The notes below the pieces were generated by a model that saw nothing but the letters and a program-made list of their open reading frames with translations, did not search any database and was not told where the DNA came from. A stretch of DNA of 63,714 nt, counting the filler, from Nitrospinota bacterium (lineage in GTDB: Bacteria; JAUXIQ01), in assembly GCA_030620925.1 (NCBI GenBank). It is 11 parts of 11 records of this genome, joined end to end, with 100 filler letters (N's around TTAATTAATTAA, not from the genome) between each part and the next. Parts side by side here need not be neighbours in the genome. Positions count along the whole stretch, not along the records: positions 14,865 to 23,293 come from JAUXIQ010000067.1; 10 more parts are not named here. One strand, written 5' to 3'. Positions 8,111-34,146 of this stretch are shown piece after piece; position 1 is the first letter of the stretch; each line of letters opens with the position of its first letter. Both the position numbers and the translations under genes were made by a program.

Positions 8111-8211
8111 NNNNNNNNNNNNNNNNNNNNNNNNNNNNNNNNNNNNNNNNNNNNTTAATTAATTAANNNNNNNNNNNNNNNNNNNNNNNNNNNNNNNNNN
8201 NNNNNNNNNNA

Positions 8212-8899
8212 TATGTCCCCGCAGACGAGATCGAAAACAGTGTCTTAATTCAATTGATACAGACCTTTGGAGATCAGGAACGACTGCAGAAGGCAGTGGA
8301 AAAAGCTACCCCTGATAAGGGAAAGAGGGAGAAGATAGAGGAAGGGTTAGACATTCTGAAGAAAGACATAGAGAAGGTTAATAGACAGATAAATAAAATT
8401 GTGGAGAAGATTTCCGAGGGCAAATTATCCGATGAGGAAGCTGAGGAAAAGGAAAGCTAATCTCAAAGATCAAATATGTGGAGAAGAGGAACAACTCAAA
8501 GACCTCTCTGACCCCCCCGATCCTGCAAAGGTGAAGCGCCTCTCCAAACTGGGGCTGGCCATTCTAAAGAACGCGACTGCAAACCAGCCGGAGGCCATCT
8601 TTGAGAAATCCTATGCGTAGAAACGCAACCTCCTTGAGCATGCATTCGCTGGAGAAACTGTTAACAAAGCTCGTTTGGGCGAGTATGTATGTGAGACGGG
8701 TGTTCCGGCTCAGCCGTGGAACTTTGAAATCCAGGGTCTTTTGGAAAGCACTATCTTGGGTTTGCCTTTGGATGATATTTATCTGGAGGAGGCATTCAAG
8801 CTCGACCCAGAATTTCAGGACATCCAGGCGGAGCTGAAGGAGATACGGGATAAAGTAGGAAGTTTTGCTCAGCGTTTACCAGGCACAACCCTTCATTGA
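8212..8899 (+). pseudogene. Decayed C-terminal part of a probable large serine recombinase
   Basis: YVPADEIENSVL, then coiled coil (...INKIVEKISEGKLSDEE), frameshift ~8445-8460, in-frame TAG 8618-8620, then KRNLLEHAF; resembles the coiled-coil C-terminus of large serine recombinases; abuts a broken yjbQ. Confidence 0.55.
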
Positions 8900-8999
8900 C
8901 GCCGCTCTCTCTGACCGCCCGGTCGACTTCGGGGGTGATGTTGATGAATTCCCTGCGTTGTGACGTATCAAACCAGAGTTCCTTCCTGTAGGTTTTCAT
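8871..8999 (-). pseudogene. yjbQ: 5' fragment (43 codons) of yjbQ, interrupted
   Basis: [25 protein letters not shown]...EGLCLVNA then unrelated sequence; the expected HITAS motif is missing; GGAGG RBS. Confidence 0.8.
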
Positions 9000-9050
9000 A
9001 TCCTCCACCCGGCGTTCTTAATTTCAAAACCCGGTCCCGCATCTTCTGCC

Positions 9051-10097
9051 TCAGGCATCTATTAGGGGAACAGTGACGGCGCGGGTATCGGCCCCGAATG
9101 TAGGGATAAATACAGAGTGGGGTCCGGCCCCGCCGGCGACGACGATCATGATATCCTCCGGCCTGTCCGCAATAGGAATCAAATCCTCTCCCTTAAGGGG
9201 TAACCCCTGGGCCTCCCGCCTGCTTACCACTCCCTCCAGCGCTTCTGGTGAAAAATAGGAAACGTGGGCTTTCGATTTTTCGAAGAGGAAACGTTTAACC
9301 TCTTCTTTATCGAACCCTCCCTTATGAACGATTGCCGCGTGCTCGGGGCAGAGCAGCACCAGGGGCTCGCCGCCCATGAGGATGTTGTTGGTGCCCACTG
9401 CGTTCATGGAACCGGCGATGGTGGTGAGCACTCCTTCGGCGGTCTTGCTGTACATATCTATGGCGTTGGTGGTCCCCGCCGCTCCCACCGAAGTAACCGT
9501 GCTCTGCTCCGGAGCGAACCCCCGCTCCACGTGGAGCGGCTGCCAGGGATTCCTCTCTTCGTTCTCAGCCAGGCAAAAGCTGTATTTCCCCGGCTGACCG
9601 GCGGTGGCCCTGTCCAGCTTACCCGGAATCCCGCCACCCAGGTTCATCATGACCAGCCTCACCGCCCGGCCGATGGTGGCGTTGGCCCGGTTCCCCTGAC
9701 CCAGACAGTTGTATCCCCAGTTCATTTCCAGTTTCCGGGTTACAGGCCCGTTCACTATGATGAGCGGGGATACGGGATTGGTGGTAGCCTGGAGACCGTA
9801 TAGATTGAAAGGTCTTTCCGCTATGGCTCTCACCGCCGCAACTACCACCGGGAAATAATCGGGCAGGCAGCCGGCCATCACCGCGTTTACGGCTACCTTT
9901 TCCACCGTGGCTTCGGCCCATCTGGGGGGTATCACACCGATAACGTCTTGGGCGGGCAGGCTCACCGATTCGAGCATCCGCCCCACCCTCTCCTCGGTGG
10001 GTGGAACTATTGGTAGCCCGTCCGTCTGCCCCAGGGAATAGTAGTGGTCGTTCACCACCTCCAGAAAATCGAGTTCCTCGGAAGTATCACCGCCCAT
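9051..10097 (-). CDS. Conserved hypothetical protein associated with UGSC-family genes
   Basis: TDGLPIVPPTEERV, EKVAVNAVMAGC, GNRANATIGRA, AENEE.NPW. Confidence 0.8.
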   Translation of the reverse strand: MGGDTSEELDFLEVVNDHYYSLGQTDGLPIVPPTEERVGRMLESVSLPAQDVIGVIPPRWAEATVEKVAVNAVMAGCLPDYFPVVVAAVRAIAERPFNLYGLQATTNPVSPLIIVNGPVTRKLEMNWGYNCLGQGNRANATIGRAVRLVMMNLGGGIPGKLDRATAGQPGKYSFCLAENEERNPWQPLHVERGFAPEQSTVTSVGAAGTTNAIDMYSKTAEGVLTTIAGSMNAVGTNNILMGGEPLVLLCPEHAAIVHKGGFDKEEVKRFLFEKSKAHVSYFSPEALEGVVSRREAQGLPLKGEDLIPIADRPEDIMIVVAGGAGPHSVFIPTFGADTRAVTVPLIDA

Positions 10098-10133
10098 GAT
10101 TTAATTACCTCTTGCGTTTAGTGGGCGAAAAAA

Positions 10134-10685
10134 TCACCCTTTCGGGTGAGACGTGAGGGCCTCTATTATCTCCTCCACCACCTTCCCCGCCTCATCCCTC
10201 ACCGACCCCTCATCGAGGCTCCCGAAGGGGTGCGGCACCATTACTATGGGAAGGGAAGGTGTGCCCAGCGACTCGGATTCCGCCCTGCCCAGATGATAAA
10301 ACTCCTGTGAACAAACGGTTACCGTGGGTATACCGGCTTTCTCGAACTCGACCGCGTCATGGACACTCCATGACGTGCAGGAACCTCAATCCCCCAGGCC
10401 GGTGATGACCGAATCGCACCCAAGCAACTCGGCCCTAATTTCTTCAGGGGCGGGTGCCGCAACGGTGGGTTTCCTTCGCCTGGTCACGGAAGTAGAGGGG
10501 TATCGGTCCAGCAACAACTCCTCCAGGGTGGACAGCAGTATATCGAAGTTCGGTTTACCGTTATCCAACATGCCTATGTTTTTACCCTCCACGCCGCTCA
10601 GCCTGGCCGAAATATCAGTGCCGGGCATGCTGGAGGGGGCGGTGGGATCCAGCAGTTTCAGCTCCCGCGGTAATTTGTCATTCAT
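10134..10685 (-). CDS. UGSC-family selenoprotein (183 aa, Sec at TGA 10388-10386)
   Basis: Reading through TGA gives ...[30 protein letters not shown]...PHPFG... to TGA at 10134-10136; N-terminal DNGKPN motif. Confidence 0.88.
10355..10375 (-). promoter_or_regulatory. Putative bacterial SECIS hairpin
   Basis: Minus strand CGTCATGGA-GTG-TCCATGACG, a perfect 9-bp stem with G-containing loop beginning 10 nt after the UGA. Confidence 0.7.
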
Positions 10686-10736
10686 CCCGCACCTCCATAA
10701 TAAGTGTGAAAAAGTATAAGGCTGCCTTCCTCGTCG

Positions 10737-11957
10737 CTACACTACTCCTTCTTCCCGCAGCTTTTCCACCTCCTCAGGACTGTAGCCCAACTCTCCGAAT
10801 ACCTCTTCGTTATTCTGGCCGAGCTGAGGGGCGGGGTTCCTGGGGCCGCAAGGGGTCTTTGAAAGCTTCACCGGACAACCCATGATCTTGATCTTTCCCG
10901 CCACCGGGTGATCCTGCTCCACTAACATGTCGCCCGCCAGCACGTGCGGGTCGTTCACCAGGTCCTTGTAGGTGTAGACCGGGCAGACCAGGATGTCTTC
11001 CTTCTCCAGTATCTCTATCCATTCGTCGGTGGTTTTGGTAAGGAACATCTTCTCTACATATTCATGAAGCTGTTCCTGGTTCTCCTGCCTCTTTGCCACT
11101 GTTTCGTATAGGGGGTCGTTCTCCAGGTGTTCCAGGTCCATTACCCGGCAGACGGCCGGCCAGCGACTATCGGTGAAGGAATCGGCGACCAGGTAAGAAT
11201 CCCTGGTCTTATAGACTCCGCATATCTCGCGCCGGTATACACCGGTATGGGAAAGGTAGTGTCCCTTGCGGCGCTTGATCTTGTCCATATCCAGGTTAGC
11301 GGTCGGCAGCATCTCCCAGGATTGGAGGGCCATCTGGCTGTCCAGCAGAGAGACCGCGACCCTCTGACCCTCGCCGGTGCGCTCCCTGTGAAAAAGGGCA
11401 ACGACTATGCCGTAAGCGCTGTTCATGCCCCCCACCTGATCGGCGATGGCAGCACCCACTGGCGTGGGCGGCGAATCGGGCCCGCCGGTAACGCTCATTA
11501 TCCCGCCCATGGCCTGGGCCATGGTATCCATTCCCGGCTTGTGAGCGTAGGGGCCTTCCTGCCCGTAACAGGAAGCCGAGCAGTAGATGATGCGGGGGTT
11601 AATCCCTGAAAGCTTTTCATAGCTGAATCCCAGCGCCCCGGCCACGCCCGGCCGGTAATTTTCCAGGAAGACGTCGCAGACCTTTGCCAGCCGGTAAATA
11701 ATTTCTTTTCCCTTATCCTGCTTTATATCGACCGTGATGCTCCCCTTGTTGCGGTTCAGGGTCAGGAAGCAGAGGTTCTCTCCATTAACCAGGTAATCCT
11801 TCTCGAACCGCTCCGGGCGGCGCGTCAACTCGCCTCTGTCCGGCGGCTCAACCTTTATCACCTCGGCACCCATGTCGGCAAGCAACATGGAGCATACGGG
11901 TCCCACCTGGAATCTGGAGAGGTCCAACACCCTGATTCCCTCAAGCGGCAGTTTCAT
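10737..11957 (-). CDS. CaiB/BaiF (class III) CoA-transferase
   Basis: LEGIRVLDLS, LADMGAEVIKVE, NRNK, ENYRPG, catalytic Asp in AIADQVGG; start re-placed at MKLPLEG behind GGAGG. Confidence 0.93.
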   Translation of the reverse strand: MKLPLEGIRVLDLSRFQVGPVCSMLLADMGAEVIKVEPPDRGELTRRPERFEKDYLVNGENLCFLTLNRNKGSITVDIKQDKGKEIIYRLAKVCDVFLENYRPGVAGALGFSYEKLSGINPRIIYCSASCYGQEGPYAHKPGMDTMAQAMGGIMSVTGGPDSPPTPVGAAIADQVGGMNSAYGIVVALFHRERTGEGQRVAVSLLDSQMALQSWEMLPTANLDMDKIKRRKGHYLSHTGVYRREICGVYKTRDSYLVADSFTDSRWPAVCRVMDLEHLENDPLYETVAKRQENQEQLHEYVEKMFLTKTTDEWIEILEKEDILVCPVYTYKDLVNDPHVLAGDMLVEQDHPVAGKIKIMGCPVKLSKTPCGPRNPAPQLGQNNEEVFGELGYSPEEVEKLREEGVV

Positions 11958-11992
11958 TTCCTCCCCCCTCTTGAAAGGTAAAATATCTTTAT

Positions 11993-13405
11993 CTACCATA
12001 TCTCTTTGTATTTGTGCGCCCAGGGCAGCGCCTCTTCGAAGGCGGCCGAAGCCTTGAGCACGGTCGCCTCATCGTAGCGCCGCCCCACTATCTGTAGTCC
12101 CACGGGGAGGCCGTCTTCCGTCCACCCGCAGGGTAGGCTGGCTGCTGGCTGACCGGTGAGGTTAAAAGGAAAGGTCAGGGCAACCCAGCTCAGTGGGCCC
12201 AATTTCCTGCCTTCGATTTCATCAACCCTGGATAGCTCTGCGGAAAACGGAGGAACGGCGGTTGACGGACACAACAGCAGATCGTAGCGTTCGAAGAAGG
12301 AGTTCACCTGTCCCCAGAAAGCCTCCCGCTGGTGGCCTGCTTTGACGTAGTCGTTGGCGGTAACGTTGTCCGATGCCTGGAGCATCTCCACCAGGGTGGG
12401 GTCCATCTTCCCGCCCCACTCCTCCAGCTTACCGCCCCAGGCGCCGTAAACATCTGCCTGGGCTATGGTCATAAAAACAGCTTCCGGATCATCGAAGCCT
12501 GGGTCTTCTTCCACAAACTCGCAGCCCAGCCCCGCAAAAACCCGCGCCGCTTCCCCGGCGATGGCGCGCACCTGGGGGTCCACAGCAGCGTAGCCGAAGT
12601 CGGGCGTCCAGGCCACGCGCAGGCCCCTCACGCCGCCCTCGCACGAGTCCAGGTATGATATTCCCTGGTCGGGTAGTGAGGCGCGGTCCCGGTCATCAGG
12701 TCCGGCGATTGAGTCCATCATGAGGGCCGCGTCGCGCACGGTGCGGGTCATGGGGCCGGTGTGCGAAAAAGAACCCATCCCCGGGAAGCCTGCTCCTTTG
12801 GCCACCCTTCCGTACTGGGGCTTCAATCCGTAGACACCGCAGAAACTGGCGGGTATGCGGATGGAACCGCCGCCGTCCGTGCCCACGGCCAGGGGCCCCA
12901 TACCGGTGGCCACCGCCACCCCCGCCCCGCCGCTGGAGCCGCCTGATGTGCGGTCCGTCACCCAGGGGTTATAGGTGGTGCCTAAGAGGGGGCTGTTGGT
13001 CACGCCTTTGTGTCCGAATTCGGGGGTGTTGGTCTTGCCCAGGATGATGGCGCCCGCCCCTTTCAGTTTATCCACCACCACGGCGTCCTCATCGGGAACG
13101 AAGTCCTCGAAAATTTTGGAGCCCAAGGTGGTCCTCACTCCTTTGGTGAAAACCAGGTCCTTGATGGAGACCGGAACTCCATGCAGCGGGCCCAGCTCTT
13201 CGCCGCGCCCCACGGCCTCTTCCGCCGATTTAGCGGCATCCCGCGCCGCGCCGTCGGTTAGCGTGCAAAAAGCGTTCAACTTCGGGTTCAGCTCTTCTAT
13301 CCTTTCCAGGGCGGCGTCCACCGCCTCCACCGGCGAGAGCTTCTTGTCTCTTATGGCGGCAGCCATTTCCGTGGCGGGCATAAGACAGAGTTCTTTATCG
13401 GCCAT
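11993..13405 (-). CDS. Amidase-signature family amidase
   Basis: GVPVSIKD, GKTNTPEFG, GGSSGG, GTDGGGSIRIPA. Confidence 0.93.
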   Translation of the reverse strand: MADKELCLMPATEMAAAIRDKKLSPVEAVDAALERIEELNPKLNAFCTLTDGAARDAAKSAEEAVGRGEELGPLHGVPVSIKDLVFTKGVRTTLGSKIFEDFVPDEDAVVVDKLKGAGAIILGKTNTPEFGHKGVTNSPLLGTTYNPWVTDRTSGGSSGGAGVAVATGMGPLAVGTDGGGSIRIPASFCGVYGLKPQYGRVAKGAGFPGMGSFSHTGPMTRTVRDAALMMDSIAGPDDRDRASLPDQGISYLDSCEGGVRGLRVAWTPDFGYAAVDPQVRAIAGEAARVFAGLGCEFVEEDPGFDDPEAVFMTIAQADVYGAWGGKLEEWGGKMDPTLVEMLQASDNVTANDYVKAGHQREAFWGQVNSFFERYDLLLCPSTAVPPFSAELSRVDEIEGRKLGPLSWVALTFPFNLTGQPAASLPCGWTEDGLPVGLQIVGRRYDEATVLKASAAFEEALPWAHKYKEIW

Positions 13406-13627
13406 GAGTCCATCCCCCATTCTTCATTTCAGGTGTTTTCAGATCGATCGACAATGACAACGATACAAGTTTAATCGAACTCCACTATTTTGCAATTAAA
13501 AAGGTCCATGTATCAACCCGATTTATTGATTGATATTAAAATATCGTTCCGCTAAAGTTATATAAAATAACGACCAAGTATCTCCACGAGAGAGCATTTC
13601 AACAATTTCCGAAGAGAGCCGACGCAA

Positions 13628-14764
13628 ATGAATTGCCCCCAATGCCAAACCGAAAACCCGGAAACGAGAAAGTTTTGCCGGGAGTGCGGGTCGAAACTTT
13701 CGCTGGCCTGTGCTCAATGCGGCTATGAGAACCTGCCCGGAGACAAGTTCTGCGGCGAATGCGGGCATGAGCTGGCGGCTCCTGCCGAACAGCAGCCCCC
13801 CAAAGAGCTATCCTTCGAAGAGAAGCTGGACAAAATCCAGCGCTACCTCCCCGGCGGAGTCACCGAAAAGATACTGGCCCAGCGGGGCAAGATCGAGGGG
13901 GAGCGGAAACAGGTAACCGTCATGTTCTGCGACATGGAGGGATATACCTCACTTGCCGAGAGGGTTGGGCCGGAAGAAATCTACTCCATAATGGACGAAG
14001 TCTACGAGCTGCTCATCCATAACGTCCACGACTACGGCGGTACAGTCAACGAGCTGACCGGCGATGGCGTAATGGCCCTGTTCGGCGCGCCGATAGCACA
14101 GGAGGACGCCCCACAGCGCGCCATTCGCTCAGCACTGGCCGTCCACCGGGAGATGGTCAGATTCAGCGATAGTCGTAGGGGCGGCGCTCGCTCCGCCCAA
14201 AATGTCCCCGCCCTTAAAATGCGCGTGGGCATCCATACCGGCCCCGTGGTGGTGGGAACCGTAGGGAATGATTTAAGAGTGGAGTTCAAGGCGGTGGGGG
14301 ACACGGTGAACCTGTCCTCACGTATGCAGGAGATAGCCGAGCCGGGCACCACCTACGTAACCGATGATACATTTAAGCTCACCGAGGGCCTGTTCCGTTT
14401 CGAGGCCATGGGTGAGCGTGAAATAAAGGGCAAGGAAGAGCCTGTCAGCACCTACCGGGTCATCGCACCCAGCGCCAGGCGGACGCGCTTCGACGTAAAC
14501 GCCGAACGCGGCTTGACCCCCTTCATAGGGCGAGAAAAAGAGCTGGAGCTTCTGCTGGACGGCTACCAGCGGGCCAGGGAAGGGAGGGGCCAGGCGTTCT
14601 CGATAGTGGCCGAGGCGGGCGTGGGTAAGTCCAGGCTCCTGTACGAGTTCAGGAAAGCAGTGACCAACGAGGACGCCACCTTTTTAGAAGGCAGATGCCT
14701 CTCCTACAGCGGCGGCACGGCCTACCATCCGATTATAGACCTCCTGAAATCCAACTTCGATATC
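13628..14764 (+). CDS. Double zinc-ribbon + class III cyclase + AAA ATPase, partial
   Basis: CxxC x4, VTVMFCD, TGDGVMALFGAP, Walker A AEAGVGKS. Confidence 0.92.
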
Positions 14765-14864
14765 NNNNNNNNNNNNNNNNNNNNNNNNNNNNNNNNNNNN
14801 NNNNNNNNTTAATTAATTAANNNNNNNNNNNNNNNNNNNNNNNNNNNNNNNNNNNNNNNNNNNN

Positions 14865-15087
14865 ACAGATAAACATTTTGGAAAAGGCTTTTCGTGCCAC
14901 AGTTACGACAGCTATTAATCGCGAATTGAATATATTGCGAAGGAACGGAATGACGGGTCAAAACCTATTGAGTACTCTCATTAATATCTACCATCAGCAC
15001 AATATGAAGGAGCGGTTGGATAACCGTAGGCTGATATTAGAGGATCATCTGATTCCTAAGATAGTGTGTAGTGAATATTTGATGTAA
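14865..15087 (+). CDS. Hypothetical protein, 3' fragment, AT-rich
   Basis: Open frame from the contig edge to TAA 15087; no recognised motif. Confidence 0.3.
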
Positions 15088-15107
15088 CACTACATATATG
15101 TTACCAG

Positions 15108-15341
15108 TCAGCCGTAGGTTTCTTCGATGATGCGGTTAAAACGGGGGACGTAGATGAGGTCGTAGACGTTGCCCTTGTCGGGGAACAGGGCCAGCACTTT
15201 CAGGCGGGTGTTCTTTAATAACGACTTTATCTCGTTTCCGGAAAGGTCGCCCCGGCTCAGCTTCCCGGCCGCGCCGTCGACGATATCGCGCAGCATGGCT
15301 ATCTTGACGTCTTCCCAGAGCGCTTCGTCATCTTTCTCCAT
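15108..15341 (-). CDS. Small hypothetical protein
   Basis: 77 aa with 'LFPDK..YDLIY.PRF.R' motif; 12 bp downstream of the radical SAM gene. Confidence 0.7.
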   Translation of the reverse strand: MEKDDEALWEDVKIAMLRDIVDGAAGKLSRGDLSGNEIKSLLKNTRLKVLALFPDKGNVYDLIYVPRFNRIIEETYG

Positions 15342-15353
15342 GTTTTTTTTCGG

Positions 15354-16805
15354 CTAATCTCCTGCCAGCTTCCTCAGTATGTCCCAGAAGGCCCCCCGAT
15401 AGCCCTCTTCCTTTATGGCTTTGAGGAGGAGGCTGTTGTCGTTATAGTTAAAGTTGTCGTCCACTTCTTCCTGGCGGGCGAAAAAGAACCTCCGGTCGCC
15501 GCCCACCAGCCTTTCCACTACGTCCATCATCCCCTCACCCAGTGTCGGCGAGACGTAGAAGGTGGGGTGGAAGAAATCTTCCTCGCCGGGGTGTGCGCCG
15601 TAGATATCCGGTCGGCCCTCAACACTTTCCTCATTTATAACAATATCCGCCATCTCCAGCCCTGGATAGAGCCGAACACCGGCGTTTATACCTACCCTGA
15701 CGGGCGAGAGCTCTTTCATCAGGCCGATGGTCCGGGCCAGGGTATCCTCGGTCTCCCCCGGGCCGCCGATGAGGAGGTCGAACATGAAGGGGATGCCCGT
15801 CTCCCTGCAGATGGATGCGGTGCGTATCAGGTCTTCCCTCTTGAAATCGCGCCCCAGACCCTCCAGGATTTCGTCGCAGCCGCTGTCCACACCGAAATTT
15901 ATTCCCGCGCATCCCGCCTCGACCATGAGCCGGGCAAGCTCTGCGTCGAACGGCAGTGGCGACAGGTAGGTATACCATCGGATGCGGTCGCCCAGTTTTC
16001 GTCTCGCAAGCTCGCGGCATACTTCACGGGCATGGTCGTAGGGCAGGTTGAACTCGCTGTCGCAGGTGTGGAAATGGTTCACCCCCCGGGATAGTAGAGA
16101 CTCTATTTCGCCTGCTACATCAGAGGGGGGCTTCAACCGGTAGCGCCTCCCTTTGATGACCGGCTCCGGGCAGAAGACGCACCCGCTGTCGCAGCCGCGC
16201 CCCGCCTCGAAACTTCCCATGCCCCCTTCATCGTGGTAGCGCCGGTTGTCCACCCAATCCCGCCCCAGGGGGGGCATGGAGGAGAAATCGGGAAAACAGG
16301 CCGGGTTTTTTCGGTAACCATCGCCCTCTCTATATATCAGGCCCGGCACGCCGCGAACATCCTCGCCGCGGGCGAGACGCTCGGCCAGCTCGAGGATGGG
16401 GACCTCCCCGTCCCCCCATATCCCGAAAGGGACGCCGCAATACCCGGCTATGCGCTCCGGAAAAATGGAGTAGCCCGTCCCGCCCAGCACTATGGGTGCA
16501 TCTGAATGGCGTCTCACGGCATCCACCACCTCTTTCAGGCGGGGCACCATGAAATCTCTGCTCACGTAGTAGACGTCATCGGTGTTTCTGAAGGTGATGC
16601 CTATGAGGAGATATTCATTTCCGCCGAGGGCGTGTGCTATGTCTTCCTCCACGTCCCTTGAGAAACAGAGGTCGAGAAGCTCCGCCCTGAAGCCGCCCGA
16701 ATGGAGTGCGGAGGCGAGGTAGTCCAGGGCCACCGGCGCAACGGGGGGCTTGATCCGGTTCGGATTAATCAGTAGCACTGATTTATCGGGCATCTGCGTT
16801 TCCAC
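15354..16805 (-). CDS. Cobalamin-binding radical SAM methyltransferase, TsrM-like
   Basis: LINPN..PP.AP.ALD.L, RNTD, CDSGCVFCPE (CxxxCxxC+E), H.H.CDSEFNL, C-terminal NYNDN..GY.GAFW. Confidence 0.85.
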   Translation of the reverse strand: METQMPDKSVLLINPNRIKPPVAPVALDYLASALHSGGFRAELLDLCFSRDVEEDIAHALGGNEYLLIGITFRNTDDVYYVSRDFMVPRLKEVVDAVRRHSDAPIVLGGTGYSIFPERIAGYCGVPFGIWGDGEVPILELAERLARGEDVRGVPGLIYREGDGYRKNPACFPDFSSMPPLGRDWVDNRRYHDEGGMGSFEAGRGCDSGCVFCPEPVIKGRRYRLKPPSDVAGEIESLLSRGVNHFHTCDSEFNLPYDHAREVCRELARRKLGDRIRWYTYLSPLPFDAELARLMVEAGCAGINFGVDSGCDEILEGLGRDFKREDLIRTASICRETGIPFMFDLLIGGPGETEDTLARTIGLMKELSPVRVGINAGVRLYPGLEMADIVINEESVEGRPDIYGAHPGEEDFFHPTFYVSPTLGEGMMDVVERLVGGDRRFFFARQEEVDDNFNYNDNSLLLKAIKEEGYRGAFWDILRKLAGD

Positions 16806-16841
16806 TGCGGCTCAACCATGAAATGCGGTCGCGTCCGGGGA

Positions 16842-17882
16842 TCATCGCTGGTCGAGATAAATTCTATCCAGCCCCAGCAGGTCTACGGACTCATCAAGTA
16901 TCACCGCGTAGAGGTTGAGGTAAGTGGGATACTCTACGAACCCCATGAGCCTGAACACCGTCTCGTCCATGCAGGGCGGGCCCATGATGTTCGCTACTAT
17001 ATTTCCCTGCTCTTTTATTCTGGACAGGGCGGCGGCGATGAGGGCCGAGGTCTGTATGCCGTCCAGGCTCCCGAACCAGACGTTGTCAAAAGTGGCCACC
17101 TGCTCCACCGTCTTGGCGATACGGGGCATGGTGAAGTAGTTTAGGAGCCCCTCCACTTTTCCCTCCACTTCCATGACCAGCGTGTCGGAAAATGGAGGAT
17201 GGCGGAGCTGCCAGGCCAGCTCCTCCTCGCTGTCCCAGACCCTGGCGAAAGGCACGCTGTGCCGGATGCCGTTAAGCAGCTCCAGGCAGCGGGGGAGATC
17301 GGAATCCTGGTAAGGGCGGATGTCGCCCTGGTAGCCGGTAACGGCAGGAATATCCACCTGCACCTTGCTCCAGTCCACCCTGCTCTTAGCCGAGAGCTTG
17401 GAGGTATCCAGTATGCGCACCCTGAGCGGACATTTGTAAACCAGTTGCACCTTGACGTCCCGCTCATCCCCGTAGCGCTTATACAGGGGTTCGGAGGCGT
17501 GTCCTTCCTGCAGGTAGACGAAGGTGCACTGATAACCCTTCTCTCTGTTTCTCCGCAGTCGTTCTTCCACCAGCCTCCAGCCTATCTTCTTCCGGCGGTG
17601 GTCGGCGTGGGCGGTGAAAAAGGTGGACATGGTGGTCTTGAGGGGCCGCTCGCCCAGGTACATACTGCGGTGGAATGAGGAGCCGAAGCCGACTATCTCC
17701 TCCCCGAGATATGCGCCCACCAGAAGCTCCTCATCCGCGCCGGGGGCCTGAAAGTGCCACTTGAGGAACTCCGGTGTATAGTCCAGGCGCGGCTCCCTGT
17801 GATAATCCTTATCCCATGCGACGTCCATCATGGAATATAGTTGCTCTATATCCGAATCGAAAGTCTTGATGGCGTAATCCAT
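16842..17882 (-). CDS. Tandem-GNAT acyltransferase resembling glycylpeptide N-myristoyltransferase
   Basis: [17 protein letters not shown], motif A '[11 protein letters not shown]', second GNAT half '[10 protein letters not shown]...EEEL.W...DTLV.E..G.V'. Confidence 0.7.
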   Translation of the reverse strand: [346 protein letters not shown]

Positions 17883-17925
17883 CGGATCAAGGCCTCCCTT
17901 TTTCAGGCCTGCGCTCCGGTCCGTA

Positions 17926-18321
17926 TCACTTGCTGCGGCAGGCTATGCATTCGATCTCCACCAGAAGCCCCTCCGCCAGGGCGGCAACCTGGAAGCAGCT
18001 CCGGGCGGGCTGATTGTCGGGGAAATATCCCCTGTAGATTTCGTTGAGCTTGCCGAAATTCTTCATATCGGTCAGGAAAACGGTGACTTTCAATACGTCA
18101 TCCAGGGATGAATCCGTTCCCTCGAGAATAATTTTAACGTTGTCCAGCGTCCTCCTCACCTGCTCCTCGAAACTGCCCTTGACCAGTTGGTCCGACTGAG
18201 GATCGAATGAGACCTGCCCCGATACGAATATCAGGTCCCCGTAAGCGGTTGCCTGGGAAAAAGGCAGGTTGAGCTTCTCGAACCCGGGTCCATTTTCTAC
18301 GTGTATAATCTCCTTTTTCAT
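17926..18321 (-). CDS. RidA/YjgF/UK114 family enamine deaminase
   Basis: PFSQA, FVSGQ, KVTVFL, PARSC, VEIECIA. Confidence 0.92.
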   Translation of the reverse strand: MKKEIIHVENGPGFEKLNLPFSQATAYGDLIFVSGQVSFDPQSDQLVKGSFEEQVRRTLDNVKIILEGTDSSLDDVLKVTVFLTDMKNFGKLNEIYRGYFPDNQPARSCFQVAALAEGLLVEIECIACRSK

Positions 18322-18362
18322 TTCTCCCTCCTCTGCTTATGCAATGTCGGTTAACTAAAAAA

Positions 18363-19610
18363 TCATCCGTAAAAACGACTAAGGATAAGGTAGATAACTA
18401 TGGTCAAACCCGCGGTGAAAGGTACGGTCAACAGCCAGGACTTTACGATGTTGCCTATTATCTTGAGGTTGAGCGCTCCCATTCCCCTGGCCAGGCCGAC
18501 CCCCACCACGCAGCCCACAAGGGTGTGCGTGGTTGAGATGGGCATACCCATTTTGGAAGCAACGAGAACGGTGGTGGCTCCCGCAAACTCGGCCGAAAAC
18601 CCCCGTGAAGGCGTCATCTCAGTGATTTTTTTACCCAGTGTCTCCATCACCCTGTAGCCCCAGGTCGCTATCCCCACGGCAATGCCTACGCCACCCATCA
18701 GGAGAATCCAGGACGGCACTTCCACTTTAAGCGTCACTACACCGCTTTTTACCACTGAGTATATGGCCACCAGCGGTCCGACAGAGTTAGCCACATCGTT
18801 GGACCCGTGTGCAAAAGCCACATAGGCTGCAGTAATTATCTGCAGGTGGCGGAAAACGCCCTCCATGGTGGCAAACTCCTCGTGCAGGTTCTCATGTGAT
18901 TCGGGCAAGGCCTTTATCAATACCTTAACTACTACCATGGCCGCCAACCCCGCTCCGATGGAGATGACCAGGGCTTCCCATAAAGGCAGATTCAGATGCA
19001 GGTTTTTAAGCCCCTTGTAAATCAAGGCCATACTTATGAGTGCGAAAACGCAAAATACCAGGTAAGGAGCGTATTGCTTGACGGCGCTCGATGGGCTCTC
19101 TGTATTTATAATCTTTTTCTGTATGAAGGTAAACACGGCAAAAGCGATTACTCCGCCTGCAACCGGCGATATAAGCCAGCTTAAGACCACCATTCCCATC
19201 TTGCTCCAATCAACGGAAAAGAAACCTCCTCCTATTATTCCGAAACCCATGATGGCCCCGATGATGGAATGCGTGGTGGAGACCGGCATCCCGAAATAGG
19301 TGGCTATCTGGAGCCAGATACCGGCGGAGAGGAGAGCAGCAAACATTCCTATCACGAAGGCGTCGGGGTTTCCTTCGAAAATCACGGGGTCCACTATCCC
19401 TTTGCGCACCGTATCCGTAACTTGCGCCCCGACGAATACAGCGCCTATGGTAGTAAGAATGCCGGCCACGAAAATCGCCTGCCGCAACGTTATGGCTTTT
19501 GAAGCCACGGAGGTGGCCATGGAGTTGGCCACATCGTTGGCGCCTATATTCCAGGCCATGTACATGCCGGCAGCCATAGCGGCGAGGAGGAAGCCGTACT
19601 CAAATCCCAT
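18363..19610 (-). CDS. PiT family inorganic phosphate transporter
   Basis: GANDVANS, PVSTTHS, HGSNDVAN, PISTTH. Confidence 0.95.
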   Translation of the reverse strand: MGFEYGFLLAAMAAGMYMAWNIGANDVANSMATSVASKAITLRQAIFVAGILTTIGAVFVGAQVTDTVRKGIVDPVIFEGNPDAFVIGMFAALLSAGIWLQIATYFGMPVSTTHSIIGAIMGFGIIGGGFFSVDWSKMGMVVLSWLISPVAGGVIAFAVFTFIQKKIINTESPSSAVKQYAPYLVFCVFALISMALIYKGLKNLHLNLPLWEALVISIGAGLAAMVVVKVLIKALPESHENLHEEFATMEGVFRHLQIITAAYVAFAHGSNDVANSVGPLVAIYSVVKSGVVTLKVEVPSWILLMGGVGIAVGIATWGYRVMETLGKKITEMTPSRGFSAEFAGATTVLVASKMGMPISTTHTLVGCVVGVGLARGMGALNLKIIGNIVKSWLLTVPFTAGLTIVIYLILSRFYG

Positions 19611-19669
19611 CTGGACGAACCTCAACTTTAATTGGAGTAACAGAAGAGTTCAATTTAGAGGCGCAGGCT

Positions 19670-20341
19670 CTACTTCTGAAGGAACATGCGAATTTGTTTT
19701 CCCACCTTCTCAGCGTCGTTGCTGAGCTGCCCCAGCTTCTTGAAAATCTCCACCCACATGAACACCGCCACAGGCTCCAGCTCCTTTTCCATGGAGAACA
19801 GAAGCTGAGCCAGCTTGTACTGCCGCTTGTCGGCCTCCCATTCCATGGTCCCGTGCTCTTCGATCATCTTCAGCACTTTCCCCGACTCGGGCCCCCCGAA
19901 GGAAGCCTCCACAAGCTCATCCAGCTCATTCACTATTTCCCGGGACCTGTAGCATACCCGCAGTACATGGTCCACCACCTCGCGCAGGCTGGCCTCCATC
20001 CAGGAGGGGCATTCCATCTTACGCATGTTGACCAGTGCCGCCAGGTCCTCCACCGAATCGCTAATGTCGTCCTGAGCCGAGAGGAGCTTGAGGAGGTCGG
20101 TGCGGTCCACGGGAAGGAACAGGCTTTTCGGCAGGTTGTCGCGGATGTCGTTTTTTAACTCGTCGGCATCGTGCTCCAGCCGCATTATCTGTTTGGATAA
20201 AGCTTTCTGCTCGTCGTGATCCTTCTGATAGAGGGCTTCGAACAGGGGAGTAACCAGGTCCAGACACTCCTTCACCTTGGTCATGTGCTCCTGAAGGGGG
20301 AGAAAAGGTGATTTAGTGAAAAGTTTGGAAATGGATCTCAC
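19670..20341 (-). CDS. DUF47 / PhoU-like phosphate transport regulator
   Basis: LEHDADELK..IR..LP.SLFLPVDR.D, E.EAD; GTG start behind GGAGG; adjacent to PiT. Confidence 0.9.
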   Translation of the reverse strand: MRSISKLFTKSPFLPLQEHMTKVKECLDLVTPLFEALYQKDHDEQKALSKQIMRLEHDADELKNDIRDNLPKSLFLPVDRTDLLKLLSAQDDISDSVEDLAALVNMRKMECPSWMEASLREVVDHVLRVCYRSREIVNELDELVEASFGGPESGKVLKMIEEHGTMEWEADKRQYKLAQLLFSMEKELEPVAVFMWVEIFKKLGQLSNDAEKVGKQIRMFLQK

Positions 20342-20588
20342 GGTAGTTCCTCCTAAGCGTGTTATATCTTCCGTGGAAAGGCTGGCGAGCCTCACCAGGT
20401 CTGATCAATAATAGATTACTTCCTCCGTGGTTACCATAAAGTAAGCCGCCACAACCAGCGCTCTATTATAAATCTATTCCCATCAAGAGTTAAGTAAAAA
20501 TGTCAGACGGGTCGATAGTTTTCAGCAGTATGGTTTTGAAATTTAACACCTGATATTATATTATTACTGGCTATCATCGAAAGGAGAG

Positions 20589-21782
20589 ATGAAGATGAGA
20601 ATAATTCTATTTACGGGCAAAGGAGGCGTGGGGAAAACCACCATCTCAGCCGCTACCGCCGTCAGGTGCGCTCAACTGGGTTACAGGACCATAGTCATCA
20701 GCACCGACATTGCCCACAGCCTGGCCGACGCTTTTGGAGAAGAGATAGGCAACGAGCCCGTTTCTCTCATGGACAACCTCTGCGCGCAGGAAATAGACGT
20801 CAACGAAGAAATCAAAGCCCACTGGGGCACCATCCAGGATTTCGTCACCAGCTTCCTCACCAAGCAGGGGTTTGACGCGATCATCGCCGAGGAGTTCTCT
20901 GTTTTTCCGGGGACAGAGGAGATGTTTTCCCTCATGAAGCTCAATAGTCATTACGAGAGCGGGAAATACGACGTGGCGATCGTAGACTGTGCACCCACGG
21001 GGGCCACTATCAGGATGCTCAGTTTTCCCGATATCCTCAAATGGTACATGGAGAAGCTGTTCAACCTGGAACGCAAGCTGGTGAGGACCCTTCGTCCCAT
21101 AGCCCAGAAGATAACCAAGATACCGCTCCCCTCGGATGATGTATACATATCCTTCGAAGAACTTTACAAAAAAGTGGGCAACATCAAGGACATCCTGATG
21201 AACCCCAAGGAAGCCAGCATAAGGTTAGTTTGCAACGCCGAGAAGATGGTCATCAAAGAGTCGCAGCGCGCTTATACCTATCTCAACCTGTTCGGATATC
21301 CGGTGGACTCGGTGGTGGTGAACCGTCTACTCCCTTCCGAGGCGCGTAAATCCTACCTGCAGCATTGGAAATCCATACAGGAAAAATACCTGAAGGAGGT
21401 GGAGGAGGCGTTCGGCCCACTGCCCATATTCCACGTAAAGTTCTTCGAGAGGGAGATATCGGGCGCTGGGGACCTTTCCCTGGTCGCTGATGATACTTAC
21501 GGGGAAAGCGATCCCGCCAAAATACTCTACCGCGGTAAACCCATGCAAATAAAGCAGAAAGGCAAGGATTACAACCTCTCGCTGAAACTCCCCTTCATGG
21601 ACAAAGAAAACCTTGATATGTGGGTGCGGGGAGACGAGTTGATCCTTCAGGTGGATAACTTCAAGCGGAACATTTTCCTCCCCAGGACTCTGGTGGACAA
21701 AAAGATAAAGAACGCCGAGTTTCTGGGAAACACGCTGCATATAACCTTTGAGGGAGAAAAAGATGGCGGAAAGAAAAAGTAA
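20589..21782 (+). CDS. ArsA/Get3 family ATPase with C-terminal HSP20-like domain
   Basis: GKGGVGKT, STDIAHSL, DCAPTG; C-terminal 'LKLPF...GDELIL...KRNIFLP'. Confidence 0.9.
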   Translation: MKMRIILFTGKGGVGKTTISAATAVRCAQLGYRTIVISTDIAHSLADAFGEEIGNEPVSLMDNLCAQEIDVNEEIKAHWGTIQDFVTSFLTKQGFDAIIAEEFSVFPGTEEMFSLMKLNSHYESGKYDVAIVDCAPTGATIRMLSFPDILKWYMEKLFNLERKLVRTLRPIAQKITKIPLPSDDVYISFEELYKKVGNIKDILMNPKEASIRLVCNAEKMVIKESQRAYTYLNLFGYPVDSVVVNRLLPSEARKSYLQHWKSIQEKYLKEVEEAFGPLPIFHVKFFEREISGAGDLSLVADDTYGESDPAKILYRGKPMQIKQKGKDYNLSLKLPFMDKENLDMWVRGDELILQVDNFKRNIFLPRTLVDKKIKNAEFLGNTLHITFEGEKDGGKKK

Positions 21783-21960
21783 AAAGAGTGTGGAGAGCGA
21801 TCTTCTCCCCGAGTTTTCAGAAGCCAAGAGCCATCTACTGAAAGCGCAGAAGGAGTTTTTACTGGCGGTACGATCCGTATTGGATAAAGCCATAGAGCGA
21901 GCCGAAGACGTTGCCAAAAAACAGAAGAGAAAGACGATCAAGAAGGTCGAGATAAAGTAG
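21763..21960 (+). CDS. Small basic helical hypothetical protein
   Basis: 65 aa, GGAG RBS, overlaps the 3' end of the ATPase gene. Confidence 0.65.
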   Translation: MAERKSKKSVESDLLPEFSEAKSHLLKAQKEFLLAVRSVLDKAIERAEDVAKKQKRKTIKKVEIK

Positions 21961-22052
21961 TATGCCCACGGCGGCTTTTTTTAACCCTCCCGGCTACCGG
22001 GAAACCCCGGCGCCGGATAACAATCACCTGATCAGAATCCGAGGAAGAGCAG

Positions 22053-23066
22053 ATGATAATAGTTCTCAAACCAAGTACCACTGACGAGGAATTAAAAGAG
22101 ATCGAGAAGAAGGTCAATGAGTGGGGGCTCAAGCTCCACGTCTCCAAAGGCACCGACAGGACTATCCTGGGCGTCATAGGCGGCGACGCCGTCATGTACC
22201 AGGACGCTTTGATAGGCTTCCCCGGGGTGGAAAAGATAATGCCCATCATGCAGCCCTTCAAGCTGGTGGGCCGCGAGATCAAACCCTTCGACACCGTGGT
22301 CAAAGTCGGCGACACGGAAATAGGGGGAAAGAAGATCAACGTCATGGCCGGGCCCTGCGCCATCGAGAATTTGGACATACTGCTGGAGATCGCCGACACG
22401 GTGAAGGAAGCGGGGGCCACCTTCCTGCGCGGCGGCGCTTTCAAGCCGAGGACATCCCCCTACAGCTTTCAGGGCCTGGAAGAAGAAGGGCTCAAATACC
22501 TTGCAGAGGCCAAGGAGCGCACCGGTCTCAACGTCATAACCGAGCTGATGGACCCCAGGGATTTGGAGCTGGTCCACCGCTACACGGATATCATTCAGAT
22601 AGGCGCCCGCAATATGCAGAACTTCAGGCTCCTCAAGGAAGTGGGAAACCAGGAAAAGCCCGTGCTGCTCAAGAGGGGCATGAGCTCCACCATAAACGAC
22701 CTCCTCATGTCCGCCGAATATATCGCCTCCAACGGGAACGAAAACATAATCCTCTGCGAACGCGGCATAAGAACCTTCGAGAACTATACCCGCAACACCC
22801 TGGACCTCAGCGCCGTACCCGCAGCGAAGGAGCTGAGCCACCTTCCCGTCGTAGTGGACCCCAGCCACGGGGTGGGCAAGTGGAGCCTGGTCATGCCCAT
22901 GGCCAAAGCCGCCCTGGCCGCCGGCGCTGACGGCCTGATGATAGAAGTTCACCCCAGGCCTCAGGAGGCCTTCTCCGACGGCCCTCAGTCTCTCAAACCC
23001 AAAGTATTCGCCCGGATGATGGAAGAACTAAAAGAGATAGCCTCGGCAGTAGGCAGAGAGCTATAG
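22053..23066 (+). CDS. aroF: DAHP synthase (type I-beta)
   Basis: [50 protein letters not shown]. Confidence 0.96.
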
Positions 23067-23078
23067 GAAGACGGACCA

Positions 23079-23293
23079 ATGAATGTACACATTACTATAT
23101 ACGGAGATTACGTCTGCCCCTTCTGTTATGTCGGGGACGAAATGATCAAACAGTTGGGAGAGGAATACGATTTAACCGTCGAATGGCGGGGGTACCAGAT
23201 CCATAAAGAAGGGAAATCCTCCCGATATATGGAGCCGGGCTATGTGGACAGAAAGTGGAATATCCTCAGACAACTGGCCGCGGAAATGGAAAG
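23079..23293 (+). CDS. DsbA/FrnE family oxidoreductase, partial
   Basis: DYVCPFCYVG. Confidence 0.8.
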
Positions 23294-23398
23294 NNNNNNN
23301 NNNNNNNNNNNNNNNNNNNNNNNNNNNNNNNNNNNNNTTAATTAATTAANNNNNNNNNNNNNNNNNNNNNNNNNNNNNNNNNNNNNNNNNNNNCGCAC

Positions 23399-24271
23399 TC
23401 AAACCAGACCGTATTCCTCCATCACGCCCGTGAGGCGTTCCTTATTGGCCTCGGACATCTCGCAAAGGGGCAGGCGCAGCTCACCGCTGATTTTTCCCAT
23501 CAGGGCCAGAGCGGTCTTGACCGGGATGGGGTTGGTCTCGTAAAACATGGCCTCGACCAGGGGCAGCAGTTTATAGTGCATCTCTATGGCCCTATCATGG
23601 TTCCCCGCCAGGAACTCGTCCACCAGCGTCGCCGTGTCCCTGGGCGCTACGTTGGCCGCAACAGAGATAACCCCCTTCCCGCCGATGGACAACAGGGGCA
23701 GGGTGATGGAGTCATCACCCGAAAGCAGGGTGAAATCCCCGTGGCAGCGGGCTACTATGTGGCTCATCTGTTCCAGCGAGCCGGAGGCCTCTTTGATAGC
23801 CACGACGTTGTCCATCTCCGCCAGTCGGGCTACCGTGGCGGGCAGCATGTTAATCCCCGTGCGGCTGGGAACGTTGTAGAGGACGATGGGTACATCCACC
23901 TTCGAGGCTACTTCCGTGTAATGGCGATAGAGCCCTTCCTGGGTGGGTTTGTTGTAGTAGGGCGTGATCATCAACACCCCGTCAGCACCGGCTTTCTTGG
24001 CGTGGCGCGTGAGACGCAGCGCCTCTTCCGTGGAGTTTGAGCCGGTGCCCGCGATTACCGGCACCCGCTTGTTCACCGTTTCCAACACGATCTCCGTCAC
24101 CCGCTCATGCTCTTCGTAGGTCAGAGTAGCCGATTCTCCTGTACAGCCGCAGGGCACGATGCCGTGAGTGCCGTTCTCGATCTGGAACTCCACAAGCTCG
24201 CGCAACGCCACCTCGTCTATGAGACCGTTCCTTAACGGCGTCACTAAGGCTACGATTGATCCCTGATACAT
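23399..24271 (-). CDS. dapA: 4-hydroxy-tetrahydrodipicolinate synthase
   Basis: GCTGES, PYYNKP, LYNVPSRTG, IKEASG, ETNPIPVK. Confidence 0.96.
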   Translation of the reverse strand: MYQGSIVALVTPLRNGLIDEVALRELVEFQIENGTHGIVPCGCTGESATLTYEEHERVTEIVLETVNKRVPVIAGTGSNSTEEALRLTRHAKKAGADGVLMITPYYNKPTQEGLYRHYTEVASKVDVPIVLYNVPSRTGINMLPATVARLAEMDNVVAIKEASGSLEQMSHIVARCHGDFTLLSGDDSITLPLLSIGGKGVISVAANVAPRDTATLVDEFLAGNHDRAIEMHYKLLPLVEAMFYETNPIPVKTALALMGKISGELRLPLCEMSEANKERLTGVMEEYGLV

Positions 24272-24357
24272 TGTCCCTCACCCCCATGATTCATGATGAT
24301 GCAGGATACAGGATAAATGTTATGATCCGGCTGCGCCTGTCTATTCTGTATCCCGCT

Positions 24358-25629
24358 CTATTCGAGAAACTCCGGTATCTTCTCCCCCTTTATGAGGTCC
24401 CGGAAAGTCTCCCGCCTCCGGATGATATGATACTCATCTCCCTTGACCAGCACCTCGGCGGCGCGGGGCCGGGCGTTGTAATTGGAAGCCATGGTGAACC
24501 CGTAGGCTCCCGCGCTCATGACCGCAATCAGCGATCGGGGCTCCATCACGGGCATCTCCCTGTCCTGCGCAAAATAGTCTCCGCTCTCGCAGATTGGTCC
24601 CACCACGTCCACGGTTATCGTACCGTCACGCTCGGGCACGAGCTGCACGGGCGCTATATGGTGATGCGCCTGATAGAGCGAAGGGCGTATCAGATCGTTC
24701 ATGGCCGCGTCCACGATATAAAAATTTTTCACCGCGTTGCTCTTTATGTAAAGCAGCCGGGTGATAAGAGCCCCGCTGTTGCCCACGATGCTTCGCCCCG
24801 GCTCCACGATCAACCGGCAGCCGCTGCTTTCCAGCACCTCCCGAAGCGCACCGGCCAGCCGCTCCGGCGTTAATGCCCGCTCTTTATCGTATCTTATGCC
24901 CGGGCCGCCCCCTATATCCAGGTATTGAAGGCGCAGGCCCTCCGCCCGCAGCCTCTCCAGAAGGTCCACCAGCTTTCGCACCGAATCCCGGTAAGGGCCC
25001 ACCCTGGTTATCTGAGAGCCGATATGCTGGTGGAGCCCCACAACCTCCAGGTTGCTCATGGCGGCGGCTCTTTTATAGTAATCCAGGGCACGTTCGATGG
25101 GTATGCCGAACTTGTCCTTCTTCAAGCCGGTGGCGATGTAAGGGTGCGTGTTGGGGTTTACGTCCGGGTTAACCCTCAAAGCTATGCGGGCCTTGACCTT
25201 CATTTCACCGGCCAGGGCGTCTATACATTCCAGCTCCTGCTCTGACTCCACGTTGAACATGAGCACGCCCTCGCGGAGGGCGTAGCGTATCTCTTCGGGG
25301 GATTTGCCCGGCCCGTCGAAGACGATCTTCCCGGGTTTGACGCCTGCCTGGCGGGCCCTGTAAAGCTCGCCGCCGGAGATTACCTCCGCCCCGCACCCCA
25401 GGCTCTCCAACAGCTTCAATATCGCAATATTGGCGTTGGCCTTGACCGCGTAGCATAGCAGGAGCGGAGTGCCCCTGAAAGCGATCTTATATTCTTTAAC
25501 CGCGTCCTTAATGAACGCATGGCTGTAAACAAAAAGGGGTGTACCCGCGTCTTCGGCCATGCGTTCCACGGGAACCTTCTCACAATAGAGCTCCCCTCCC
25601 CGGTAATGAAAATTTCCGATGCTTTCCAA
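24358..25629 (-). CDS. lysA: Diaminopimelate decarboxylase
   Basis: YAVKAN, HIGSQI, EPGRS, GPICESGD, GAYG. Confidence 0.96.
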   Translation of the reverse strand: MESIGNFHYRGGELYCEKVPVERMAEDAGTPLFVYSHAFIKDAVKEYKIAFRGTPLLLCYAVKANANIAILKLLESLGCGAEVISGGELYRARQAGVKPGKIVFDGPGKSPEEIRYALREGVLMFNVESEQELECIDALAGEMKVKARIALRVNPDVNPNTHPYIATGLKKDKFGIPIERALDYYKRAAAMSNLEVVGLHQHIGSQITRVGPYRDSVRKLVDLLERLRAEGLRLQYLDIGGGPGIRYDKERALTPERLAGALREVLESSGCRLIVEPGRSIVGNSGALITRLLYIKSNAVKNFYIVDAAMNDLIRPSLYQAHHHIAPVQLVPERDGTITVDVVGPICESGDYFAQDREMPVMEPRSLIAVMSAGAYGFTMASNYNARPRAAEVLVKGDEYHIIRRRETFRDLIKGEKIPEFLE

Positions 25630-26000
25630 TATCGCCTCTCCACAACAGCGGCGCTCTCCAGTAAGCCGCTTCTCCGATCTACGCAGATAGAGAAATCAAA
25701 CCAAGTCTGGCAATTGTAGAGTAAATCCGCAATTGCGTCAACCATTTAGTCCTACCACCGGAGCGGGATTCGAACGCAATAAAGAATAGGCGTGAACAAG
25801 GTCTATAACCGTCGGCGGCTTTGAATAGACGAGTCCATACGGCTCGCCTCTGCCTGAAAACCTTCAGCCTCCAGGATGGACTGCGCGGGCATTGAATTGT
25901 CGGATTTTCGATATAAATATTACTAAATGGGCACGAATAAGGCCGATGGCTTTATCGTTTCGTATGGAGCTAAATTCCTGTTAAATGGGAGGATCATAAA

Positions 26001-26843: not shown

Positions 26844-26950
26844 GGGAATCTTAAAAAAACCTGTGAGGGGGCCTTTTAAAAAACACCCCCTCACGCTCCC
26901 CCCAAAACTTTTGTGTTTGCCCGTCCGGGTTACTCTCTTCTACCCCGCCT
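26843..26950 (+). repeat. 108-bp direct repeat, copy 1 (hairpin-rich, REP/MITE-like)
   Basis: ggggaatcttaaaa...gtgagggggcctttt...ccccctcacgctcccc...ctaccccgcct; copy 2 at 27279-27386. Confidence 0.9.
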
Positions 26951-27057
26951 GGCAAGAAACCCGCGCGGGTGCCCTGCATAATACTCAAAAGTTTTGGTAG
27001 GCTGGTCAGGAGCTGCTTACCCAGCCGGCGAATGTTTATATCGAAGGGCTCTCGATT

Positions 27058-27103
27058 GTCATTCTGAACGGAGTCTCGCTTGGCGGGACGAAGTGAAGAA
27101 TCT
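27058..27103 (+). repeat. GTCATTCTGA...GAAGAATCT short palindromic element
   Basis: Same element type in reverse orientation at 56396-56433. Confidence 0.65.
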
Positions 27104-27386: not shown

Positions 27387-27505
27387 TTTTGAGCCGGAAA
27401 AAAGCTGAAATATTAATTTTGACTCACGCGCCGCCCTATGCTAAAGGTAACTGAACCATAAAACTTGATGCAATCCCATAACCGTAATTCATAAGGATCG
27501 GTTTT

Positions 27506-34129: not shown

Positions 34130-34146
34130 TTCACCATAACCACCGG

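Follow-up and report, generated by a model that had tools for sequence, protein, structure and literature searches.

A tandem-GNAT protein of a Nitrospinota bacterium related to eukaryotic N-myristoyltransferase

The gene and its product

We describe here a gene of a Nitrospinota bacterium whose product, 346 amino acids (aa) long, resembles N-myristoyltransferase (NMT), an essential eukaryotic enzyme and drug target that joins a fatty chain to the ends of proteins and that prokaryotes are generally said to lack. The gene lies in a stretch of 63,714 nucleotides, filler included, from assembly GCA_030620925.1 (the whole stretch that was analysed, hereafter the window). The window consists of eleven contigs of a metagenome-assembled genome (MAG) joined by N spacers, seen as ten pairs of 44-N runs (2866..60311), and is not contiguous. 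The contig of the gene covers 14865..23293 of the window, and only the genes inside it are physically linked to the NMT-like gene. The gene and the parts of its product are the following.

16842..17882, minus strand: NMT-type double-GNAT gene, 346 aa (open reading frame, ORF; stop codon at 16842..16844)
17893..17898, minus strand: Shine-Dalgarno sequence GGGAGG, 10 nt before the ATG, read from the sequence
17403..17882, minus strand: N-terminal GNAT lobe, residues 1-160, with the predicted acyl-coenzyme A (acyl-CoA) site; boundary placed by the secondary structure of the model
16893..17402, minus strand: C-terminal GNAT lobe, residues 161-330, counterpart of the peptide-binding lobe of NMT, from sequence search and structural alignment
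16845..16892, minus strand: C-terminal tail, residues 331-346, whose aligned range ends opposite the last residue of NMT

Sequence resemblance to NMT

The N-terminal domain of NMT in Pfam (PF01233) matched the protein with 43.5 bits against a cut-off of 25 (E 3.9e-11), and the C-terminal domain, NMT_C (PF02799), stayed below its cut-off (11.8 bits vs. 27.9, E 0.19). Generic acetyltransferase models of Pfam match too (Acetyltransf_9, E 1.1e-9; Acetyltransf_1, E 2.7e-8). When all PDB chains were searched with phmmer, human NMT2 was recovered with an E value of 2.4e-12 over query residues 12-255, and the first 35 of the 39 matches at E<=10 were NMTs, the remaining four having E>=0.31. The identity to eukaryotic NMT is about 21%. 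The C-lobe alone (residues 161-346) produced 18 matches in the PDB, every one of them an NMT (best E 3.1e-4) and at the matching C-lobe position.

Among the 60 PDB matches listed for the family profile there were 44 NMT sequences, with E values from 2e-24 to 1.6e-17, and the next match came at 7.6e-8; Eis was matched over the N-lobe only (E 1.6e-6 to 8e-5). Individual family members reached PF01233 at E<=0.01 in 36 of 68 cases and PF02799 in 23 of 68 (best 3e-7). A preliminary description of this DNA had listed five motif pairs shared with NMT, and all of them turned out to be real alignments. Pairs 1, 2, 4 and 5 are found in the phmmer alignment to human NMT2, while the third (RILDTSKL vs. 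RSLNPRKL) is reproduced by the 68-sequence family profile and placed differently by the single-sequence phmmer search. The likeness to NMT is far beyond chance and concerns the whole length of the protein.

Predicted fold

The AlphaFold2 (AF2) model, built on nine sequences, has a mean predicted local distance difference test (pLDDT) score of 89.6 and a predicted template modelling (pTM) score of 0.89, with pLDDT values of 91 and 85 in its last two blocks. For the last ~90 residues the match to NMT comes from predicted structure alone. All the Foldseek rows listed, through rank 50, were NMTs, with template modelling (TM) scores of 0.73-0.79 and E ~1e-20. The same was true of the 50 rows listed for VIA-align, in which 314-323 residues were superimposed on NMTs with a Z score of 30-31.5 and a root-mean-square deviation (rmsd) of 2.8-3.1 A.

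A structural search independent of Foldseek also placed NMTs on top (Z 30.4 and 29.9), followed by MAB_4324 (7q3a, Z 25.6). The alignment to 7q3a covers 298 residues (rmsd 2.9 A, 17% identity) and stops at model residue 329, excluding the conserved tail; this structure is not among the 60 PDB matches listed for the family profile. The other double GNATs had lower Z scores: Eis2 20.9, the clavulanate-pathway tandem GNAT 2wpw 20.6, MshD 17.5, HisAT 16.1, FemX 14.8 and FemA 14.4. The Eis chains of ~390-410 residues that were listed gave Z 17-21 and rmsd 5.2-5.9 A.

FemABX, Eis and MshD were therefore rejected as the closest fold, their Z scores being well below those of NMT. Eis proteins have three domains, with an extra domain at the C terminus, and such an architecture (~400 aa) was also rejected for this protein of 346 aa, which has two lobes only. 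The earlier proposal of a bacterial protein with the NMT fold is borne out, as NMT ranks above FemABX, Eis and generic GNATs both in structure and in the family profile. It was to be dropped if FemAB, Eis or generic GNATs came out as the best profile or structural hits, which did not happen. The protein is a genuine, if distant, relative of NMT that shares its two-lobed fold, and its closest known relatives by sequence and predicted fold are the eukaryotic NMTs.

Chain end and predicted active site

The carboxylate at the C terminus of NMT acts as the catalytic base (Dian et al., PMC7048800), an arrangement described as unique among GNATs (PMC4964394). In our alignments the model range 1..346 corresponds to HsNMT1 154..496, ScNMT 77..455, CaNMT 81..451 and Leishmania NMT 54..421, and in the full-length NMT chains listed the aligned range ends at the last residue of both proteins. 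The chain end is also conserved among the prokaryotic relatives. In the 68-sequence family alignment, 67 proteins end in the same final column, 49 have Arg as the last residue and 39 have Tyr at position -4. Arg was likewise found at the chain end in 91 of 137 family proteins of 330-390 aa (stored proteins from the word-indexed and exhaustive searches, P0001 left out). A fixed and conserved chain end is what a catalytic C terminus predicts, and the ends of the aligned ranges together with this conservation suggest that the C terminus would reach the active site in the way it does in NMT.

In order to locate the counterparts of other NMT residues, the positions whose roles are given by Dian et al. 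(PMC7048800) were mapped through the phmmer alignment to NMT2, and each column was checked in the family (n=68).

NMT Phe247/Leu248 (backbone of the oxyanion-hole beta-bulge): F88/F89; family columns hydrophobic
NMT Arg255..Ala260 (CoA-pyrophosphate motif): R96..G101; R96 in 43/68, G99 in 38/68, G/A101 in 60/68
NMT Tyr180 (Ab-loop): W23; W in 65/68
NMT Tyr192: Y35; Y/W/F in 57/68
NMT Asn246: T87; T/S in 49/68

The R-x-x-G-x-G/A motif is thus kept across the family. The pocket that receives Gly2 of the substrate is a different matter. Its strictly conserved residues in NMT are Tyr180, Tyr192, Asn246 and Thr282 (PMC7048800), and this set is not found in the bacterial protein. The equivalent of Thr282, the 'catalyst platform', is L124 in the pairwise alignment or E126 in the profile, the two alignments being two positions apart. 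The N-terminal region of NMT, which according to PMC4964394 helps to bind myristoyl-CoA and the peptide, has no counterpart either, since residue 1 of the model lies opposite HsNMT1 154, ScNMT 77 and CaNMT 81; the starts of all nine close homologues fall within one residue of each other. With Asn246 and Thr282 replaced, the N-terminal region missing and NMT_C below its cut-off, the protein is not a canonical NMT. It has the NMT scaffold and probably a catalytic geometry of the NMT type, but lacks the Gly-peptide pocket.

Genomic context and selection

The NMT-like gene is the fourth of five co-oriented genes with spacings of 36-44 bp. Its neighbours in this array are the following.

19670..20395, minus strand: PhoU_div/DUF47 (Pfam)
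18363..19625, minus strand: PHO4 phosphate transporter (Pfam)
17926..18321, minus strand: RidA (Pfam; Rid family in NCBIfam)
15354..16805, minus strand: B12-binding radical SAM (rSAM) gene (Pfam Radical_SAM and B12-binding)
20493..20465, minus strand: best promoter-like site of this strand, upstream of PhoU_div

The gaps from PhoU_div through PHO4 and RidA to the NMT-like gene are 41-44 bp, and the rSAM gene follows 36 bp downstream. The first four genes are probably one transcription unit, which does not imply a functional link.

Only two species of the host phylum were present in the genome collection, and both carry the NMT-like gene. Both genomes are MAGs that are ~89% complete, in 445 and ~550 contigs. 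In the sister genome (G001, labelled 'uncultured Nitrospinota bacterium') the orthologous locus lies on contig L002, where PhoU_div, PHO4, RidA and the NMT-like gene appear in the same order with 79-84% aa identity. Comparison with this ortholog gave a ratio of nonsynonymous to synonymous substitutions (dN/dS) of ~0.09 (dN 0.133; dS 1.43, near saturation), similar to those of RidA (0.06) and DAHP synthase (0.07). The GC content at third codon positions (GC3) is 0.76, within the 0.64-0.78 of the neighbours. Eukaryotic contamination or a recent transfer was considered and rejected because of the bacterial neighbours, the Shine-Dalgarno site, the neighbour-like GC3 and the synteny with the sister genome. 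The NMT-like gene is bacterial, resident, functional and under selection.

Some other features of the region can be mentioned. Divergent from the PhoU_div operon there is an ArsA-type ATPase with a C-terminal HSP20-like domain (20589..21782, plus strand), 79% identical in the sister genome. At 13628..14764 (plus strand) a protein that resembles the signalling ATPases of cyclase-STAND type is cut short by a contig end; it combines an N-terminal double zinc ribbon with an adenylate/guanylate cyclase domain and the beginning of an AAA_16 ATPase domain. No Rfam elements were found on the contig of the NMT-like gene.

A scattered prokaryotic family

A word-indexed search recovered nine clusters of relatives, from 99 to 31% identical and 345-352 aa long. 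The exhaustive profile search was far more productive, with 1211 representatives at E<=1e-3, of which 404 reach <=1e-10 and 67 reach <=1e-30; eukaryotic NMTs may be among the weaker matches and in the count of 404, since the library carries no names, and the best 150 matches are mostly about 350 aa. No eukaryotic NMTs were found in the word-indexed profile search, in which one family member (P0065) is labelled as a Thermoplasmata archaeon MAG. Among 301 genomes sampled across Bacteria, 18 contained a match at E<=1e-8 and eight, the host included, a full-length one at E<=1e-90. The ESM Atlas neighbours are bacterial clusters labelled as generic GNATs and belong to Myxococcota, Aminicenantota, Acidobacteriota, Chloroflexota, Verrucomicrobiota, Planctomycetota and Nitrospirota. 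Other relatives are called 'GNAT family N-acetyltransferase' in their sources, and these labels are automatic. No loci of the 48-54%-identical relatives were found in the metagenome scans, and the genome-contig scan retrieved the sister MAG only.

The preliminary description had started from the premise that enzymes of the NMT type are purely eukaryotic, which is outdated. PMC12219266 (a 2025 study of HisAT/NAT16) searched the PDB and AlphaFold DB for double GNATs whose C terminus, as that of NMT1, comes to lie at the active site, and it reported structures of this NMT type from both bacteria and archaea. It gives no function for the prokaryotic proteins and cautions against inferring one. It is likely that those proteins and the present sequence family are identical. 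A literature search pairing NMT with Asgard found no paper. Our protein is a further member of the prokaryotic NMT-type double-GNAT family, a scattered group already noted in print and uncharacterised.

The surroundings of distant family members are diverse. Two of six distant loci, both from one genus, share a UbiB gene and a transglutaminase-like gene and have MMPL and LolA-like genes close by (L027). At another (L025) a long SDR protein and a convergent wax-ester synthase stand beside the family member, and in a further distant locus its neighbour is a Ser/Thr kinase. At L024 (8017..11208, G018:C92) the family member overlaps the end of a pair formed by an ABC ATPase and an ABC-2 permease (DrrB-like), which suggests an exported product in this lineage; a baeRF-family release-factor-like gene is nearby. 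At L023 (6410..12011, G154:C111) it is flanked on one side by a CmlS-like FAD halogenase/monooxygenase and on the other by a PigE-like reductase-aminotransferase (781 bits, cut-off 850), in a genome that carries planctomycete-type genes (PSCyt, DUF1501). Possibly this locus is a small natural-product cluster, with the NMT-like enzyme acylating the amine product.

Possible functions

We consider it fairly probable that the protein is a soluble tandem-GNAT N-acyltransferase of the NMT type, carrying out acyl-CoA-dependent N-acylation by means of the oxyanion bulge and the C-terminal carboxylate. In such a mechanism acyl-CoA would bind to the N-terminal lobe, and the thioester carbonyl would be polarised by the backbone amides of the F88/F89 beta-bulge. 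The acceptor amine would enter the cleft between the lobes and would be deprotonated, directly or through water, by the C-terminal carboxylate of Arg346, the chain end running back into the active site as it does in NMT. The acceptor is presumably not a peptide with an N-terminal Gly, because the Gly2-holding residues have changed and the N-terminal substrate-binding region is missing; it may be a small amine, a lipid amine, a peptide or a protein.

Several observations weigh against this proposal. Columns 124-126 have no conserved Thr or Ser across the family, so there is no hydroxyl counterpart of Thr282 and the chemistry may differ from that of NMT. The six distant family loci share no common neighbour, so the genomic context gives no substrate. 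Finally, MAB_4324c is reportedly an N-acetyltransferase, going by the title of the paper that describes it, which makes a short acyl donor quite possible; the long-chain donor of the preliminary description gains no support from our results.

The point on MAB_4324c leads to a first alternative, a short-chain (acetyl or propionyl) N-acetyltransferase of a small molecule or a protein, similar to MAB_4324c, in which the NMT likeness would reflect shared scaffold ancestry only. We regard it as possible, if rather unlikely. That 7q3a is the best non-NMT structure agrees with it, as do the Acetyltransf_9 and Acetyltransf_1 matches and the acetyltransferase labels of the relatives, but the latter are automatic, the 7q3a alignment leaves out the conserved C-terminal tail, and 7q3a is missing from the listed family-profile matches in which the 44 NMTs are present. 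The absence of the NMT region that helps in myristoyl-CoA binding (PMC4964394) would also fit a short donor.

An unlikely alternative is the N-acylation of a lipid or a long-chain amine, as by a ceramide-synthase-like enzyme or a lipoamino-acid or natural-product acyltransferase. The lipid- or amine-forming neighbours of some distant members (L023, L025 and L027) hint in this direction; the link to lipid chemistry was drawn post hoc and does not apply to the present locus, which has no such neighbours. Bacterial ceramide synthase, bCerS, is a GNAT. We found no support for a ceramide-synthase-like role in the 89%-complete host genome, where the nine PF00155 matches include no alpha-oxoamine synthase (serine palmitoyltransferase, for example), and this candidate was rejected. 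PF01233 was found in none of 14 control genomes, including that of Caulobacter vibrioides, which makes bCerS (PMC11087976, a paper with no statement on the fold of bCerS), although this result is weak evidence because PF01233 matches only 36 of the 68 family members.

That the protein could be a true bacterial protein N-myristoyltransferase, lipidating an N-terminal Gly (or Lys), seems very improbable to us. The fold and the chain end of NMT are there along the whole length, the oxyanion bulge is conserved, Y35 preserves Tyr192, and W23, likewise aromatic, stands in for Tyr180. These similarities have to be set against the substitution of Asn246 by Thr87 and of Thr282 by Leu124 or Glu126, in family columns that are T/S and hydrophobic or variable, respectively, against the loss of everything that precedes HsNMT1 residue 154, and against the NMT_C score below cut-off.

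A common pathway with the adjacent B12-rSAM methyltransferase, for instance acylating Trp, methyl-Trp or a ribosomally synthesised and post-translationally modified peptide (RiPP), is scarcely credible and largely refuted: the two genes are on the same strand, 36 bp apart, the best NCBIfam match of the rSAM protein is Trp 2-C-methyltransferase and a 77-aa ORF (15108..15341, minus strand) begins 12 nt after the rSAM stop, but no rSAM gene follows the NMT-like gene in the sister locus (a convergent Lyase_1 gene is found there instead), its best counterparts in the sister genome are on other contigs, and none of the six distant loci has it as a neighbour. The rSAM protein, a class B enzyme, does not reach the cut-off in any NCBIfam model (the nearest being Trp 2-C-methyltransferase, 301 of 500 bits, and ladderane-type lipid rSAM, 243 of 360), and there are 11 matches to it in the sister genome vs. 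two in the host. We therefore rejected the rSAM gene as a conserved partner, and the hint of a Trp or methyl-Trp acceptor that had been drawn from this neighbour is weakened. The 77-aa ORF was rejected as a RiPP precursor: it matches no Pfam family and nothing in the sister genome.

The family is of interest beyond this copy. It is a sizeable prokaryotic group with the NMT fold, the oxyanion hole and an otherwise unique chain-end geometry, but with a different acceptor pocket, and from a characterised member one could learn what purpose the NMT scaffold had before its recruitment to protein myristoylation and whether bacteria lipidate with it. One could speculate that in bacteria and archaea the family attaches fatty acyl groups to amines of peptides or proteins, with the C-terminal carboxylate as base, and that it was the stock from which eukaryotic NMT was recruited. 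If this were true, protein N-lipidation of the NMT kind would predate eukaryotes; we consider the idea quite doubtful. The present copy itself adds little beyond family membership, given that its neighbours provide no substrate and that the family is already in print (PMC12219266).

Comparison with known systems

The closest comparison is with eukaryotic NMT (human NMT1 and NMT2, yeast Nmt1p; EC 2.3.1.97), with which the bacterial protein shares the tandem GNAT fold along the whole chain, the oxyanion-hole bulge, the basic CoA-binding stretch, the aromatic residue at the kink of the Ab-loop and the aligned chain end. It differs in having no region before HsNMT1 residue 154, in the changes of Asn246 to Thr and of Thr282 to Leu or Glu, and in its last residue, which is Arg in the bacterial protein and Gln or Leu in eukaryotic NMT. 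The Mycobacterium abscessus protein MAB_4324c (7q3a), also bacterial and of similar size, is the best structural match outside NMT. With Eis, MshD, the clavulanate-pathway tandem GNAT, HisAT/NAT16 and FemABX the likeness is in two GNAT lobes with one active site. In the AF2 model, and judged by where the aligned ranges end, the bacterial protein belongs to the prokaryotic NMT type as PMC12219266 defines it.

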